Source: a virus. Taken from it: a stretch of 64,000 nucleotides of DNA. Shown here piece by piece: positions 6,162-12,144 of the stretch. The notes under the pieces are model-generated. The model made no database searches. It was not told the origin of the DNA and worked only from the letters and a program-made list of their open reading frames with translations. The first letter of the stretch is position 1. Each line of letters starts with the position of its first letter. Where the stretch lies: IMG/VR virus record IMGVR_UViG_3300016471_001035, positions 75,595 to 139,594 of that record; one strand, 5' to 3'. The position numbers and the translations under genes are program-made.

Positions 6162-6200
6162 TTGAATTATTTATTCTTTATATTATAATAAATCAGGAGG
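6162..6200 (+). promoter_or_regulatory. Sigma70-type promoter followed by Shine-Dalgarno AGGAGG
   Basis: TTGAAT(6162)-N16-TATAAT(6184-6189); AGGAGG at 6195-6200, 8 nt before ATT at 6209. Confidence 0.75.
6168..6173 (-). promoter_or_regulatory. T4-type late promoter core
   Basis: TAAATA-N7-ATG(6160), nested in the spacer of the opposite-strand sigma70 promoter. Confidence 0.6.
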
Positions 6201-6208
6201 TTATAGCT

Positions 6209-6892
6209 ATTTGCGGTATATTTGGTTCTAAAGACTTTACAACTTATGTAAAGCTTTATAAGAGCAACAAGAAACGTGGTACGTTTTCTTACGGTGGTCT
6301 ACTGATCGGCTCACATATTCACGCTGTTCTCAAGACACCAGGCACTGCCAACCTATCCAATAAGCTAGTTATAGAGTACGGTAAAAAGAGGAGAAACATT
6401 ACAGATTTTGATGTTTTTTTAGGACACACTCAAGCCCCTACATCTGAAAAAAGAACATTTTCACCAAATACATCTCATCCTTTTCAACATAAAGAATGGT
6501 TAATTGCACATAACGGGGTTTTAACAAACGATAAGGAATTAAAAAAGCTTATTAAAGATAAAAAATCTTATAACGTTGTAGATTCATCTGTTATTGCACC
6601 GCTTATAGCTATGTTTGTTAAAGAGCTAGATGATGAGGTTGCAGGTGTTTGCAAAGCACTATCGCTACTTAAAGGTACGTTTGGCCTTTGGATATATAAT
6701 CAAAAAACTGGTAATATTTTTCTCGCACGATCCGGCAGTACAGTATTCGCAGATTTTCTATCAAACGACTTTTCTTCTTTAAAGGAAAGCGGGTTTGTCC
6801 CTCTTGACGAAGGTACACTATACCTATTAACTAAGGAAGGGTTAACCTCCGTAGGCGTATTTAAGACTAACTCTCCGTTTTTTACACAATGA
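6209..6892 (+). CDS. Class II (Ntn) glutamine amidotransferase, ATT start, 227 aa
   Basis: Read by hand: ATT TGC GGT ATA TTT GGT = (M)CGIFG, then RG, LGHTQAPT, SHPF, AHNGVLTN, VDSSVI, LKGTFGL. No stop before joining ORF 6611-6892; no in-frame ATG/GTG/TTG back to the TAA at 6122. Confidence 0.9.
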   Translation: MCGIFGSKDFTTYVKLYKSNKKRGTFSYGGLLIGSHIHAVLKTPGTANLSNKLVIEYGKKRRNITDFDVFLGHTQAPTSEKRTFSPNTSHPFQHKEWLIAHNGVLTNDKELKKLIKDKKSYNVVDSSVIAPLIAMFVKELDDEVAGVCKALSLLKGTFGLWIYNQKTGNIFLARSGSTVFADFLSNDFSSLKESGFVPLDEGTLYLLTKEGLTSVGVFKTNSPFFTQ

Positions 6893-7581
6893 AAACAGCA
6901 TTTTATTTTTGTACAAGAAATTCTAAAGCGCAAGATACTTTTGCATTTAAATCTCTTCAAAGAATTAAACTAGCTACTCTATGGGAGTTTACTATAATTT
7001 ATAAGGAAAATAATAATGACGGATTAAGCTTAAATTATAATAGTGTTTTAGAAAAGCATGGTAAAGATTATGATAACATAGTTTTTATACACGATGATGT
7101 TTATATTGACGATCTTGGAGTGGTAAATAAGCTAGAAAAAGCTCATAATGATTTTGATATTGTAGGTCTTGCTGGGGGGTTAAATCCTGAAATTAAAGCA
7201 CCCGCCCTTTGGCATTTAATGTGTGGGGGGTTTAACAGCGGTAATTTGAGAGGAGCAGTAGCCCATAAATTTAATAATGATCAAATTTTTATGACCAATT
7301 TTGGCCCCACACCCGCTAGAGTTGCTATTTTAGATGGACTATTCCTAAGCGTTAAAACCGAATGTTTTTTAAAAAAGGAATTTAAATTTAATGAAAATTA
7401 TAACTTCCATCATTATGATATTGCCACCTGTATTGATGCTAATAAAAACAAATTAAAGTTAGGGGTCGTCCCTATATGGGTAGTACATAATTCACCCGGT
7501 CTTCTTAATATCAACGATGCTACATTTAGCGCTAGTCAATCTATATTTTTAAGAGAGTATAGCAGTATTGATTCTGTATAA
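6889..7581 (+). CDS. GT-A fold glycosyltransferase-like protein
   Basis: LSLNYN, VFIHDDV (DxD-like), IVGLAG, LDGLFL, FHHYD; ATGA overlap with the amidotransferase. Confidence 0.75.
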   Translation: MKTAFYFCTRNSKAQDTFAFKSLQRIKLATLWEFTIIYKENNNDGLSLNYNSVLEKHGKDYDNIVFIHDDVYIDDLGVVNKLEKAHNDFDIVGLAGGLNPEIKAPALWHLMCGGFNSGNLRGAVAHKFNNDQIFMTNFGPTPARVAILDGLFLSVKTECFLKKEFKFNENYNFHHYDIATCIDANKNKLKLGVVPIWVVHNSPGLLNINDATFSASQSIFLREYSSIDSV

Positions 7582-7595
7582 TTTTAATATATCAT
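7568..7595 (+). promoter_or_regulatory. Sigma70-type promoter, start codon at predicted +1
   Basis: TTGATT-N16-TATCAT-N6-ATG(7602). Confidence 0.7.
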
Positions 7596-7601
7596 AAGAG
7601 A

Positions 7602-8930
7602 ATGGTTAAATTAGATCTAGATTTTTTTGAGCTTATTATTGCTTATAAATCATTAACTGATGAAACCTATTTAGCTTCTGTTGTCGACCATATAAAGCCT
7701 ATTTTCTTTAAAAATAAAGATATTAAAGTTATTTTTACAATAATAAGAGATTTTTATGAAAAAAGAAATGCATGTCCTACCTTAACAGAAATAAAATCGT
7801 ATTTAACTAACGATGAGCTTAAAAATTCATTTAAGAATGTTGTAACACAGTTTAATAATTTAGATAAAAATTTTAACACAGATGAATTATCTGCTAATAC
7901 AGAAACTTTTATAAAAGAAAAATCCGTATACCATACAATGATGGATGTAGTAGATGATATCAACAAAAATAGTGTCGACACTTCTAAAATTTTAGCTAAA
8001 TTTGAAAAAGCTTGTAGTATATCTTTAACCACTGAAATAGGGTTAGATTTGTATGCTAATTTAGATAGAGTAATTGAAGACCTGCATTCTTCAGAAAAAT
8101 ATATTCCTTCTAAATGGAAATGGCTTGATGATAAAATAGGAGGTGGGTTTCTAGAATCTGGTAGAGCACTCTATTTGTTTGCAGGCGAAACAAATATTGG
8201 TAAAAGTATATTTTTAGGAAATGTAGCTATTAACATAGCTGAGCAAGGAAAGACTGTATTGCTTGTTTCTTTAGAAATGCCAGAAATAATTTATGCTAAA
8301 AGACTCGTTTCAAGTGTATCTAAAATACCATTAAGCCAATTAAAAATAGAGTCTGATTCTTTAAAAAATCAAATTAGCGAGTATTGTATTGAAAATCCAA
8401 ACGCAAAAATTATTATAAAGGAGTTTCCTCCCGCAACAATTACGCCCAACCATTTAAAGGCTTTTATTAAAAAATTAATACAAAAAGGTATTAAGATAGA
8501 TGCCATAGTTTTGGATTACGTAAATCTATTACATTCGTCTATGGGTGATTCAAGCTATGAGCGTGTTAAGATTTGTACTGAACAATTAAGAGCTTTATCA
8601 TATGGGTTTAATTGCCCTGTTATATCCGCTACTCAGTTAAACCGTGAGGGGTATGAAATAACTGACCCAGGTTTAAAGACAATATCAGAAAGTATAGGGT
8701 TGGCTATGACAGGTGACGTTATTATGAGTATTTGGCAAGAAGATACAGATAAAGAACTTGGCATTATTAAAATGGGATTAATGAAAAACAGGTTTGGACC
8801 TAATTACGGTCATTGTGCAATGAGGATAGATTATTCAACACTTACTATTACAGAAGACGAGCATATAAATGACACAGAAGCAAGCACTTCTTCAATTAGT
8901 ACGTTGACAAAATTAGCTATCGACAATTGA
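7602..8930 (+). CDS. gp41: Replicative DnaB-like helicase (T4 gp41-like)
   Basis: Walker A GETNIGKS, SLEM, VLDYVNL, ATQLNR, KNRFG. Confidence 0.95.
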   Translation: MVKLDLDFFELIIAYKSLTDETYLASVVDHIKPIFFKNKDIKVIFTIIRDFYEKRNACPTLTEIKSYLTNDELKNSFKNVVTQFNNLDKNFNTDELSANTETFIKEKSVYHTMMDVVDDINKNSVDTSKILAKFEKACSISLTTEIGLDLYANLDRVIEDLHSSEKYIPSKWKWLDDKIGGGFLESGRALYLFAGETNIGKSIFLGNVAINIAEQGKTVLLVSLEMPEIIYAKRLVSSVSKIPLSQLKIESDSLKNQISEYCIENPNAKIIIKEFPPATITPNHLKAFIKKLIQKGIKIDAIVLDYVNLLHSSMGDSSYERVKICTEQLRALSYGFNCPVISATQLNREGYEITDPGLKTISESIGLAMTGDVIMSIWQEDTDKELGIIKMGLMKNRFGPNYGHCAMRIDYSTLTITEDEHINDTEASTSSISTLTKLAIDN

Positions 8931-8955
8931 TTTATCTATTTAGTTAGATAATTAG

Positions 8956-9252
8956 TTGTTGAATGTGAAAGGTTACGATCCTTCTGAGCAATTAACAGAT
9001 TATGAACAAACTCATTTGTTTTTATCTTTCTGTTCGTTTGTAACACTCACTAATACAAAAAAATTAAATCTTGCTAATGTTTTTATTACCCTTCTTAAGA
9101 ATAAAGAATTTAGAGAGATTTTTAAAATTTATTGTGATTTAAAAAATGATTTTTCAGCTGTAAAATTTTTCTTGCAATTTGATTCAAGCTTGTATAAAAG
9201 TAAATATATAATGAAATTTTTAAACTCAAATAAAAAGGCGCTTTTCCTATGA
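8956..9252 (+). CDS. Hypothetical protein
   Basis: 98-aa ORF, start uncertain (TTG 8956 or GTG 8965); its stop overlaps the bS21 start. Confidence 0.65.
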   Translation: MLNVKGYDPSEQLTDYEQTHLFLSFCSFVTLTNTKKLNLANVFITLLKNKEFREIFKIYCDLKNDFSAVKFFLQFDSSLYKSKYIMKFLNSNKKALFL

Positions 9253-9461
9253 GCAATATTGTTAATGCTTCTGTAACTTTAGATAAGAAGAAATGTACAG
9301 ATAAAGTTTATTTTGATAAAGCCTACAAAAGGTTTGCAAGAGAATTTTTAAGGTCGGGTGTGTTAGAGGATTTAAGATTTAAAAGGTGTTATTATAAACC
9401 AAGCGTGTTGCGTAAGTTAAAAAAGCAAGTTGCAAGACAGAAGTGGAAGTTTTACAATTGA
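9249..9461 (+). CDS. rpsU: Phage-encoded 30S ribosomal protein bS21
   Basis: 70 aa, basic; FDKAYKRFAREFLRSGVLEDLRFKRCYYKPSVLRKLKK matches the bS21 pattern ALRRFKR..G...E.R.R.FYEKPS..RK. Confidence 0.85.
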   Translation: MSNIVNASVTLDKKKCTDKVYFDKAYKRFAREFLRSGVLEDLRFKRCYYKPSVLRKLKKQVARQKWKFYN

Positions 9462-10099
9462 TTACCGAGTTTGAAAAGCACATTTATAATTCTTATTTAA
9501 AAGTCACTAGATCAAATAGTGAACTACCTTACAAACTTAGAAAAAATTTTGAAAAAGTTGACGATAAGCTTTATGTAGCCTTAAAAAAGCTTTCTTCTTT
9601 TTTTAAGAGATACCCCCATATAAAAATAGAGGATTTTTTTCGCGCGCCTTATTCTCTTTACCCTGACGAAAAATATTTTCCAATAGAATATTTTTATTCA
9701 CTTAAAGCTATAAAGTCCTATACTTTGTTTAATAAGCAACAGACAAATCTTGATCCGGATAGCGATGAACAGCTTAATAGCATTAAAAATTCATTAATTT
9801 TTATAAAAAGTTTTTGTAGAGATAATAATTTAAATGTAGAAAATTATATTTTTCACAAAACAAAAAATGAATATTCATTTATTTTGCACTTAAAAGAACA
9901 TAATGTCAACGTATATACTTTATTAGGATTTAATAACTTTGAGAAAATTCTTAGAGGCTGTAACCCCGATATTACAAAATTTATTATTGGTGAGGATATA
10001 TACAACAACATCCAGGTATTTAGAACACGTCTTTATAATTCAAAAAAAGCAAGTAAAGTTGTCGAATATGGACTTAAAAAAATATTAGAAAAAGCTTGA
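9443..10099 (+). CDS. Hypothetical protein, possibly gp59-like helicase loader
   Basis: Basic, aromatic-rich, about 215 aa, directly upstream of gp32 as gp59 is in T4; function from synteny only. Confidence 0.45.
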   Translation: MEVLQLITEFEKHIYNSYLKVTRSNSELPYKLRKNFEKVDDKLYVALKKLSSFFKRYPHIKIEDFFRAPYSLYPDEKYFPIEYFYSLKAIKSYTLFNKQQTNLDPDSDEQLNSIKNSLIFIKSFCRDNNLNVENYIFHKTKNEYSFILHLKEHNVNVYTLLGFNNFEKILRGCNPDITKFIIGEDIYNNIQVFRTRLYNSKKASKVVEYGLKKILEKA

Positions 10100-10123
10100 T
10101 TAAGCAAATAAAGTTATTATTAT
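10096..10123 (+). promoter_or_regulatory. Sigma70-type promoter, start codon at predicted +1
   Basis: TTGATT-N16-TATTAT-N6-ATG(10130). Confidence 0.7.
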
Positions 10124-10129
10124 TATTCT

Positions 10130-10984
10130 ATGAGTACATTTACCACATCGATGTTTGAAAGTATTAAGGGCGCTTTGACGAAAAATAACGAATCTACTGC
10201 TTCGAAGGTTAAAGACTATCTTCGCTGTGAAGCCGGCAACACATATACAGTTAGACTTATTCCTAATGTAAAAGACCCATCTAAGACGTTTTTTCACTAT
10301 TATTCATACGGCTGGAATAGTTTTGCTACTGGTGAGCTTATTACTGCAGTAAGCCCTACTACATGGAATCAGCGTGATCCTATTGCTGAAGAAAGGTATC
10401 GTATTTTGAGAACAGGTACAGAGAAAGAGAAGGAAAAGGCTTTGGCTATTAAGCGTAGAGAAAATTGGTTAGTTAATGTTTATATTATTAACGATCCCGT
10501 AAACTCTGATAATAATGGGAAGGTAAAGCTCTTACGTTTTGGTCGCCAGCTACATAAAATTATTATGGATGCTATTGAAGGTGAAGAAGCCGCAGAGCTT
10601 GGTCCTCGTATATTTGACCTATCTCCTAAAGGCTGTAACCTTAGAATTAAAGTTGAGAAGCAGGGTGACTACCCCACATACGTTTCATCTAAGTTTTCTA
10701 CTCCTAAGGAAATAGAGGGGTTGGACGAAGATGATTATAAGAAAGTTTATAACAGCTCATTTGATCTTGAGTCATATGTTAGTGTTAAGAGCTACGAAGA
10801 GCTTAAAAATCTACTTGATGCGCATTACTATGGCACCAAGGATGTTGAAGAGGACGGCGCTGTTACTGCTGAAGTTAAAGCACCTAAGCCTTCAGTTAAT
10901 GTAACTATTAATTCTAAGAAGGCTGAGACGAAAGAGACTACAGCCGACGATCAGCAAATAGACGAATTACTTAAAGATCTATAA
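10130..10984 (+). CDS. gp32: Single-stranded DNA-binding protein (T4 gp32-like)
   Basis: VRLIP, NVYIINDP..NNGKVKLLRFG, IFDL..GCNLRIK, YPTY.SSKF, acidic tail IDELLKDL. Confidence 0.92.
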   Translation: MSTFTTSMFESIKGALTKNNESTASKVKDYLRCEAGNTYTVRLIPNVKDPSKTFFHYYSYGWNSFATGELITAVSPTTWNQRDPIAEERYRILRTGTEKEKEKALAIKRRENWLVNVYIINDPVNSDNNGKVKLLRFGRQLHKIIMDAIEGEEAAELGPRIFDLSPKGCNLRIKVEKQGDYPTYVSSKFSTPKEIEGLDEDDYKKVYNSSFDLESYVSVKSYEELKNLLDAHYYGTKDVEEDGAVTAEVKAPKPSVNVTINSKKAETKETTADDQQIDELLKDL

Positions 10985-11382
10985 TGGAAGATACTTTTAG
11001 AGAGTTAACTCCAGAAGAAATTAAACTGGCTACTATCCAGTTTATGGGCCAGCACCTAACTGGAGAAATGAAAGAACTCAATAAAAATATTATCGGCGAA
11101 AGCGCTACACTTAGATCTTTATCCATAGACCCCTTAAAAGTTATTCAAACAATTCCAGGGGATAAACGTCCATATGCTACAACTGTTAATGCTGGGATAA
11201 ATATTGCTCCTAACGCTATTCATCATCCTATTCCAGTACAGCAATCTCAACAACCCACAGTAGATCCTAATCAACTTGAATTTGATTTTGGTAAGTCAAA
11301 TTTAGCAAATTCTATTTTAGATCGGTTAGATTCGTTGAGCTCAAAATTAGATAAAGTTATAGCCTTACTTAAAAAAGATTGA
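10984..11382 (+). CDS. Hypothetical protein
   Basis: 132 aa, TAATG-coupled to gp32; contains DPNQLEFDF. Confidence 0.75.
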   Translation: MEDTFRELTPEEIKLATIQFMGQHLTGEMKELNKNIIGESATLRSLSIDPLKVIQTIPGDKRPYATTVNAGINIAPNAIHHPIPVQQSQQPTVDPNQLEFDFGKSNLANSILDRLDSLSSKLDKVIALLKKD

Positions 11383-11406
11383 TAATTAGTAGTTATATCT
11401 TATTAT
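11379..11406 (+). promoter_or_regulatory. Sigma70-type promoter, start codon at predicted +1
   Basis: TTGATA-N16-TATTAT-N6-GTG(11413). Confidence 0.7.
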
Positions 11407-11412
11407 AAATGT

Positions 11413-12144
11413 GTGAATTTAAGTATAAAAGATAGAGATAACTTTTTAAATAATTTTGTAATTCCGTTAAGTAAGATAACAGACAGCGCAGTTATAAAAA
11501 TTGCTCCAGGCAAGATAACATCTTTAATTTCCACAAGCGATAATACAATTATTGTTAATTCAGAGTATAACGATGATAGTATAAAAGCAGTTAAAACTTT
11601 AAACGTACCTGACTTAAAGAAGCTTTGCAGAGTTATTTCATGTATAGATGAAACAACTTTTAATTTAGATATATCATCAAATTTTATAGGCTACGATTCT
11701 CGTAATGTTAGGTTTAAGTATCATTTGTATGACGATGGCATTATTGCATCACCTAAGCTTAGTATAGATAAACTTAATTCTTTAGAATTTGATGGTAAGT
11801 TCACCCTACCTCTCGCCTCTGTCATAAACCTTATCAAAGGCAGCTCCATAAGCACCGAAACAAATAAGATTTATTTGTCTGTTAAAGACAAGCAGATATT
11901 TGGTGAATTAACAGATAAGACTAGATCTAATATTGATTCATATGGTATTAATATTTCTGATGATTATAGCGGAACTCAGTTTGCAGTTGCTATACCCTTG
12001 AATTTTGAGATATTTAGAATAATTTCTTCTATGAGATTTAAGGAGCTTCAAGCAAACCTAATAACAAAAATGGGCGTATTAACGTTAGACTTAAACTTAG
12101 ATAATTCTAAATTTAAGTTTGTTATTTCTGCTCTAGCCAACTAA
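11413..12144 (+). CDS. gp45: DNA polymerase sliding clamp (T4 gp45-like)
   Basis: 243 aa, two-domain beta-rich pattern, LNVPDLKKL and FKYHLYD resemble gp45 segments; replication context. Confidence 0.7.
   Translation: MNLSIKDRDNFLNNFVIPLSKITDSAVIKIAPGKITSLISTSDNTIIVNSEYNDDSIKAVKTLNVPDLKKLCRVISCIDETTFNLDISSNFIGYDSRNVRFKYHLYDDGIIASPKLSIDKLNSLEFDGKFTLPLASVINLIKGSSISTETNKIYLSVKDKQIFGELTDKTRSNIDSYGINISDDYSGTQFAVAIPLNFEIFRIISSMRFKELQANLITKMGVLTLDLNLDNSKFKFVISALAN

Follow-up and report, generated by a model that had tools for sequence, protein, structure and literature searches.

A homologue of the ribosomal protein bS21 is encoded at positions 9249..9461 of a 64,000-nt stretch of viral DNA, the last 64 kb of the 139,594-bp IMG/VR record IMGVR_UViG_3300016471_001035 (hereafter the window), among the replication genes of a T4-like phage. 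By comparing relatives that carry this gene with relatives that lack it, we found that bS21 is an accessory cassette at one fixed site, optional within the lineage, and that it is neither the cause of nor required for the leaderless design of these genomes, which do almost without Shine-Dalgarno (SD) sites. The design itself is older and belongs to the lineage as a whole or to its host. The original prediction, made from the letters of the window, had instead joined bS21 and leaderless gene starts into one translation takeover system. The record (CheckV completeness 66%, GC 33.5%) is assigned to a T4-like phage by a T4-type large terminase, a tail sheath, gp32, a UvsX-like RecA and a family B polymerase. 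A DNA search found no cultured phage matching it, and the closest cultured phages are distant, with at most 39% identity for TerL and at most 34% for gp32.

We counted as SD-like any GGAG, GAGG or AGGA tetramer at −20..−4 from a start, with crude gene calls that gave 158 starts. Such tetramers were found at 18 of these starts (11.4%), compared with 7.3% of 17-nt windows drawn at random from this genome, and the claim that this genome makes almost no use of SD sites was thus borne out; in the pelagiphage HTVC008M the corresponding value is 47% of starts. Looking at the promoters, we observed that TAYAAT ends exactly 6 nt before the ATG of 14 genes (0.28 expected per spacing), that TAAATA ends 5 nt before the ATG of 18 genes and 6 nt before that of 13 others (0.18 expected per spacing), and that TTGA stands 30 nt before the ATG of 16 genes. 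This geometry is far beyond chance. A sigma70 −10 hexamer spans −12 to −7 and the T4 late promoter box, TATAAATA, which is read by gp55, spans −13 to −6; with these distance rules the observed spacings place the predicted +1 on the A of the ATG. The promoter geometry therefore predicts leaderless mRNAs, and on this point the original prediction was right. The same distances, a −10 box ending 6 nt or a TAAATA ending 5 nt before the ATG, are those of the leaderless lambda cI mRNA made from PRM and of T4 late promoters. However, lambda cI is a single regulatory gene, whereas here the layout concerns about one third of the gene starts, with both promoter classes, across the lineage; we found no description of a lineage-wide leaderless design of such extent in the literature searched.

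The early promoters of the phage read TTGAC-N16/17-TATAAT. Outside the window, at G000:C1:2100-9100, a run of small early open reading frames (ORFs) each have their own TTGAC-N17-TATAAT promoter 6 nt before the ATG, and several of them read TATAATAGGAGT-ATGATG, which places AGGAG inside the spacer between promoter and start. Two genes near this run (starts 9370 and 9558) have ordinary SD sites at normal spacing. The only tRNA gene of the record, a tRNA-Met (CAT) at G000:C1:10751-10825, also lies in the early region and outside the window, just upstream of a small ORF. Within the window, the lone SD gene with an ATT start that had been pointed out is indeed present: positions 6162-6215 read TTGAAT-N16-TATAAT, then AGGAGG, 8 nt and ATT-TGC-GGT, the start of an amidotransferase of the MCGIFG type. 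Its orthologue in the relative L002 (6910-6960) starts with ATG and has no SD. This pairing of a weak ATT start with AGGAGG, set against an ATG start without SD in the orthologue, hints at a host ribosome able to use SD pairing.

We then compared phages with and without bS21. Eighty relatives were retrieved through gp32 (52-90% identity) and S21 was located with a subfamily profile. In 45 loci the gene was found some 880 nt upstream of gp32, in each case on the forward strand between the helicase gene and gp32; it was absent from 33 loci, in which the homologues of its two neighbours, orf98 and orf218, abut and leave no room for a gene between them. A search for PF01165 anywhere in five S21-minus records of 43-122 kb gave no match, these records being themselves fragments, 16-61% complete. 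Among 930 genes of S21-plus relatives, 16.7% had the early-type and 16.3% the late-type leaderless geometry and 9.5% an SD-like motif; among 428 genes of S21-minus relatives, the corresponding values were 13.6%, 12.1% and 6.1%. In a shifted control, with the same patterns anchored 9 nt upstream, only 0.4-2.3% were obtained. The gp32 promoter, TTGNNN-N16-TANNNT-N6-ATG, is also kept in the S21-minus loci L044, L047, L054, L062 and L082. Phages without bS21 thus show the same geometry and the same SD poverty, and the expected co-occurrence of bS21 with leaderless starts breaks down in them, which is the outcome that the original prediction had itself named as speaking against it; the reading of the two as one system is not supported. 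What stood of the takeover proposal is that this genome does have both bS21 and the leaderless geometry; the dependence of the design on bS21 received no support. A translation takeover driven by bS21 is possible, but it is not supported by this comparison.

On a tree built from the helicase and gp32, the main S21-plus clade (34 rows) was well supported. Two S21-plus loci, L045/46, are sisters of the S21-minus loci L047/48 with 100% support, and L060, also S21-plus, clusters with loci that are S21-minus. The tree requires a minimum of three gains or losses of bS21. Because all copies share one site and belong to one subfamily, the simplest history would be a single ancient gain and later losses, or else recombinational exchange.

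As judged from profile matches and motifs, the ORF at 9249..9461 is a genuine bS21 homologue encoded on the phage. It matches PF01165 (Ribosomal_S21) with 40.7 bits for a cut-off of 27 (E 2e-10), residues 22-65 lying on positions 10-53 of the 55 of the profile, and it also matches PHROG 21469, 'ribosomal protein S21'. A six-frame search of the whole 139.6-kb record gave one PF01165 match only (40.2 bits). With its neighbours, a DnaB-like helicase and a gp32 single-stranded DNA binding protein, the gene is in a replication module, as had been proposed. When a profile made of the protein and 16 close relatives was searched against all PDB sequences, the top matches were all bS21 chains, the best being that of Lactococcus lactis (5myj, 33 bits, residues 22-68). 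In this alignment FDKAYKRF and YYKPS face LDDALRRF and YEKPS of the L. lactis protein, and both motifs also align with E. coli-type and F. johnsoniae chains. The bS21 core is therefore kept in the form of a hydrophobic-D/E-x-A-aromatic/L-K/R-R-F helix and a Y-x-K-P-S turn. An AlphaFold2 (AF2) model (predicted local distance difference test score, pLDDT, of 82) has three helices at 19-36, 38-46 and 51-65; its two best Foldseek matches are chloroplast bS21 chains, both weak (E 1.5 and 2.5).

The protein belongs to a distinct subfamily. A word-indexed search gave 16 clusters of 56-90% identity, all of 67-70 aa, several of them from contigs 100-170 kb long. An exhaustive profile search of 1.84 billion representative proteins gave 6 proteins at E<1e-10, all of 66-81 aa, and then, after a gap, generic S21 proteins at E 1e-7 and weaker; no cellular protein in this set scored better than about E 1e-7. 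The close similarity to a cellular bS21 that is expected after recent capture from a host was thus not found. Compared with cellular bS21, members have an N-terminal extension of about 10 residues, with L11, K15, K19, Y21 and F22 invariant; K50, P51 and S52 are also invariant in the subfamily, and all 17 rows of alignment A1 have K65-W66-K67. Among the 34 distinct proteins of the 45 loci, two (L039 and L041) end in KRRF without the tryptophan and four others have KWR. The median pairwise dN/dS (ratio of nonsynonymous to synonymous substitution rates) of bS21 was 0.20; orf218 gave 0.18, and the helicase and gp32 gave 0.07-0.09. Saturation of dS makes these values rough, but they indicate that bS21 is under purifying selection. 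Every member whose context was examined lies at one site, between the orf98 and orf218 homologues.

The short aromatic C-terminus, QKWKFYN, had been pointed out in the original prediction. It is present, but the L. lactis protein ends in KKY, aligned with the WKF of the phage protein, and a C-terminal aromatic residue is, by this alignment, an ordinary trait of short bS21 proteins. Dual coding was considered as the reason for the conserved KWK tail, since the GTG at 9443, from which the longest ORF of orf218 would start, lies inside the KWK codons. This frame is open in the window but closed by stops in L011, L012 and L060, and most relatives have the start of orf218 on the stop codon of bS21 instead, which rejects dual coding as a general explanation.

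The organization of the region is as follows (window coordinates).

6889-7581: glycosyltransferase.
7568..7595, + strand: sigma70-like promoter, TTGATT-16-TATCAT, ending 6 nt before the helicase ATG at 7602.
7602-8930, + strand: DnaB-like replicative helicase of the T4 gp41 type (Pfam DnaB_C, 95.7 bits; PHROG 19, E 2e-74).
8956..9252, + strand: orf98, conserved small protein with homologues in 78/78 informative relatives.
9249..9252, + strand: ATGA start-stop overlap of orf98 and bS21, a translational coupling signal.
9249..9461, + strand: bS21 homologue, 70 aa, PF01165 match.
9458..9461, + strand: TTGA overlap of the bS21 stop (TGA) and the orf218 start (TTG; alternative start, GTG 9443).
9458..10099 (9443-10099 from the longest-ORF start), + strand: orf218, putative T4 gp59-like helicase loader by predicted fold.
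10096..10123, + strand: sigma70-like promoter, TTGATT-16-TATTAT, ending 6 nt before the gp32 ATG in leaderless geometry.
10130-10984, + strand: gp32-type single-stranded DNA binding protein (Pfam gp32, 62 bits; PHROG 224, E 1e-40).
Downstream of gp32: a 132-aa ORF, then a 243-aa ORF, the latter taken for the clamp in the original prediction.

The bS21 gene is joined to both neighbours. Its ATG (9249-9251) overlaps the TGA (9250-9252) of orf98, the junction reading ATGA, and this coupling, already noticed in the window, is general: the upstream junction of the 34 distinct relatives is ATGA in 29, TTGA in 4 and TAATG in 1. Downstream of bS21, most of the same relatives have TTGA, GTGA, ATGA or TAATG at the junction. 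For the window we take TTG 9458 as the likely start of orf218; the GTG 9443 frame is stop-closed in some relatives. Where bS21 is absent, orf98 joins orf218 directly through ATGA or TAAATG; the cassette thus occupies a junction that was already coupled, and coupling is kept on both sides of it. Across the genome, of 121 pairs of adjacent genes on one strand, 38 either share 4 or 1 nt or are no more than 3 nt apart.

Promoter-like sites with leaderless spacing precede the helicase gene, gp32 and the 243-aa ORF, and the same scan gave none before orf98, bS21 or orf218. No terminator-like site was found on the + strand in 7400-11500. The 7568..7595 promoter thus probably drives a predicted helicase-orf98-bS21-orf218 transcript, and given this layout of promoters and terminators bS21 is most likely an internal cistron of it, expressed with the replication genes. 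A TAAATA box is present within orf98 at 9201-9206, 4 nt before an in-frame ATG (site 9201-9213), and could define a leader ORF of 13 codons whose end falls on the start of bS21. As a conserved internal promoter of bS21 this box was rejected: synonymous sites vary freely among 52 relatives, meaning that conservation there concerns the protein motif KSKY[IV][MT]K alone.

As for the neighbouring genes, orf98 had no Pfam, PHROG or PDB match, and its homologues are present with or without bS21. Its start may be TTG 8956, TTG 8959 or GTG 8965. We considered whether it was T4 gp33, and rejected this since, besides the lack of any database match, alignment to HTVC008M gp33 with hhalign gave a probability of 0.8%. 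In L047 (8118-9029), as well as in L043-L048, L088 and L089, an extra gene of about 303 aa lies between the helicase gene and orf98, and its stop overlaps the start of the orf98 homologue (ATGA); the window does not have this gene. For orf218, no sequence-level match was found, including to gp59. Its AF2 model (pLDDT 90.8), however, had T4 gp59 (1C1K) as its top Foldseek match (E 0.21, probability 0.80), and a VIA-align comparison with 1C1K gave a Z of 6.9 over 174 aligned residues with a root mean square deviation of 13.4, the next chain having a Z of 3.5. Like T4 gene 59, which is of equal length, orf218 lies directly upstream of gp32. From its modelled fold, orf218 is probably a T4 gp59-like helicase loader missed by sequence searches.

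Bacteroidota-type promoters carry TTTG at −33 and TAnnTTTG at −7, and the ribosomes of these bacteria are SD-blind. We found no TTTG after the −10 box in the early promoters of the phage, and promoters of the TTGAC/TATAAT type rather than the −33/−7 type argue against a Bacteroidota host, as does the gene in which AGGAGG supports an ATT start. Residues 20-60 of the phage bS21 align without gaps with residues 10-50 of F. johnsoniae bS21; when this alignment is extended, Q64 falls opposite Tyr54 and the invariant W66 two residues further. The analogy with sequestration of the anti-Shine-Dalgarno (anti-SD) sequence in Bacteroidota, on which the original prediction drew, is weak. Attempts to find the host gave little. 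A scan of species genomes with the gp32 alignment found nothing, and the bS21 alignment gave a single match in 185,579 species genomes, the rpsU of a Clostridia-like metagenome-assembled genome, 48% identical over the core. This gene was rejected as a host lead because it is a cellular gene, beside tilS, hpt, ftsH, acpS and rho; the names of the cellular clusters closest in S21 sequence, Gemmatimonadales and WWE3, were uninformative in this respect.

Phage-encoded bS21 and the idea that it substitutes for the host protein are already published (PMC6375957, PMC9723584). Roughly 1,300 viral contigs with bS21 have been described and substitution into host ribosomes was proposed (PMC6375957); pelagimyophages also carry the gene (PMC7029224). 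The bS21 of HTVC008M, which is 54% identical to the host protein, enters E. coli 70S ribosomes, and translation of an SD-led GFP mRNA by these ribosomes is at about 5% of the control (PMC6375957). Like the phage studied here, HTVC008M is a T4-like aquatic myovirus of about 33% GC with a single small bS21 gene under purifying selection, and it shares the late-type spacing, with TAAATA exactly 5 nt before 11 start codons (records L084-L086, NC_020484). Unlike this phage, it has no TATAAT-N6-ATG class and is rich in SD-like motifs, and its bS21 is host-like, with a C-terminus that is basic and not aromatic, and is encoded behind cobS, close to hsp20; its similarity to the subfamily covers 32 core residues only (hhalign probability 85%). 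Large uncultured freshwater myoviruses assigned to Bacteroidetes hosts also share several features with this phage: their bS21 is conserved, an aromatic residue near its C-terminus has already been discussed, and the hypothesis put forward is identical, namely replacement of the host bS21 by that of the phage, to the advantage of phage mRNAs (PMC9723584). In 30 published phage genomes bS21 is near DNA helicase genes (PMC9723584). However, the bS21 genes of Chen et al. 2022 are on the reverse strand in the structural module (terminase, capsid, protease, portal), are expressed late and resemble Flavobacteriia bS21 with Tyr54 (PMC9723584), whereas here the gene is forward, in the replication operon, coupled on both sides and without a close cellular relative, with Q64 opposite Tyr54. 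We found no paper linking bS21 with leaderless phage genomes in the literature searched. As read from the genomes, the present case differs from these in its subfamily, its site in a replication operon, the two-sided coupling and the SD-free leaderless genome, with sigma70-type early promoters, in which it occurs.

The explanation that we favour, and in which we place about half of our confidence, is that of a phage-adapted accessory bS21 that is made by coupling and retunes host initiation, and that is not the cause of the leaderless design. With no promoter or SD of its own, bS21 would be an internal cistron of an early or middle helicase transcript, translated by termination-reinitiation across the NTGA start-stop overlaps on both sides. 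Its product would bind the host 30S subunit at the bS21 site beside the 3' tail of 16S rRNA, as suggested by the retained core and by the entry of HTVC008M bS21 into E. coli ribosomes (PMC6375957). From the replication phase onward it may then replace or supplement host bS21 and so retune initiation; the likeliest effect would be to weaken anti-SD-dependent initiation on host mRNAs, SD-free phage mRNAs being indifferent. E. coli ribosomes without bS21 and uS2 translate the leaderless lambda cI mRNA well (PMC10491246), and therefore phage mRNAs of such a design should not need bS21. Several points weigh against this reading. The loss of bS21 in several sublineages means that its benefit is conditional or small, and a copy may conceivably lie elsewhere in the genomes of the fragmentary S21-minus records. 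For the AF2 model of the protein by itself, the Foldseek matches to bS21 chains are weak (E>1). Furthermore, the reduced activity of E. coli ribosomes with HTVC008M bS21 may, according to the authors, be mere incompatibility (PMC6375957).

A plainer account, somewhat doubtful but the strongest competitor, is that the phage merely supplies extra bS21, a loosely bound, exchangeable protein that would be limiting in slow-growing aquatic hosts, so that more 30S subunits become competent while mRNA preference is unchanged. The ribosomal proteins carried by viruses are preferentially exchangeable ones, and aquatic samples account for 90% of the detections of viral bS21 (PMC6375957); the core motifs are kept, and a gene dispensable in sister lineages is what a modest quantitative benefit would give. 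However, a simple supplement should stay host-like, as HTVC008M bS21 has (PMC6375957), and not form a subfamily without close cellular relatives, with an invariant N-terminal extension and KWK of its own; moreover, leaderless mRNAs do without bS21 in E. coli (PMC10491246). Given the great distance of the protein from all cellular bS21 and its own invariant additions, we have a weak preference for dampening of anti-SD-dependent host initiation over plain supplementation. A stronger form of dampening, which we consider unlikely, would be that, in a lineage with mRNAs already leaderless or start-stop coupled, this divergent bS21, with an N-terminal extension and a KWK tail of its own, is an optional add-on that locks away or misplaces the host anti-SD and shuts off SD-dependent host translation, phage messages read by 70S ribosomes being unaffected. 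If this were true, sister pairs with and without the cassette would show the purpose of a phage bS21.

Less probable again is the takeover system as first proposed, in which bS21 is the core of a machinery favouring leaderless 70S initiation, co-evolved and mutually dependent with the leaderless design. Besides the presence of both elements in one genome, it has in its favour that bS21 adjoins the anti-SD, that an aromatic tail, KWK[FYH], is conserved in the phage protein, and that ribosomes with a viral bS21 are poor on SD-led mRNA (PMC6375957). Yet sister phages without the gene share geometry and SD poverty, the gains or losses of bS21 left gene starts without visible change, bS21 is itself a coupled internal cistron and not leaderless, and the aromatic C-terminus is, as the L. 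lactis protein indicates, nothing unusual; in E. coli it is the absence of bS21, not its presence, that favours leaderless translation (PMC10491246). We regard as very improbable an extraribosomal role, in which this small basic protein would bind phage RNA or DNA, for example to regulate the gp59-like or gp32 genes, and have no function on the ribosome. The location in the replication operon, the coupling to the gp59-like gene and the strong divergence from cellular bS21 would fit such a role, and an extraribosomal partner of bS21, the OLE ribonucleoprotein, has been reported (PMC12054373). Nevertheless, the conserved stretch is exactly the bS21 core modelled by Pfam (residues 22-65), no Rfam family was found within 7000-12000, and the sole phage bS21 tested does enter ribosomes (PMC6375957).

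Altogether, these data narrow the question, since bS21 cannot be what enables leaderless translation in these phages. Phage bS21 is the commonest virus-encoded ribosomal protein, and close sisters with and without the cassette in the same operon give a clean comparison; together with an SD-poor genome whose promoters abut the start codons, this comparison makes bS21 function experimentally addressable. The leaderless design is probably a more interesting feature of this lineage than bS21 itself.

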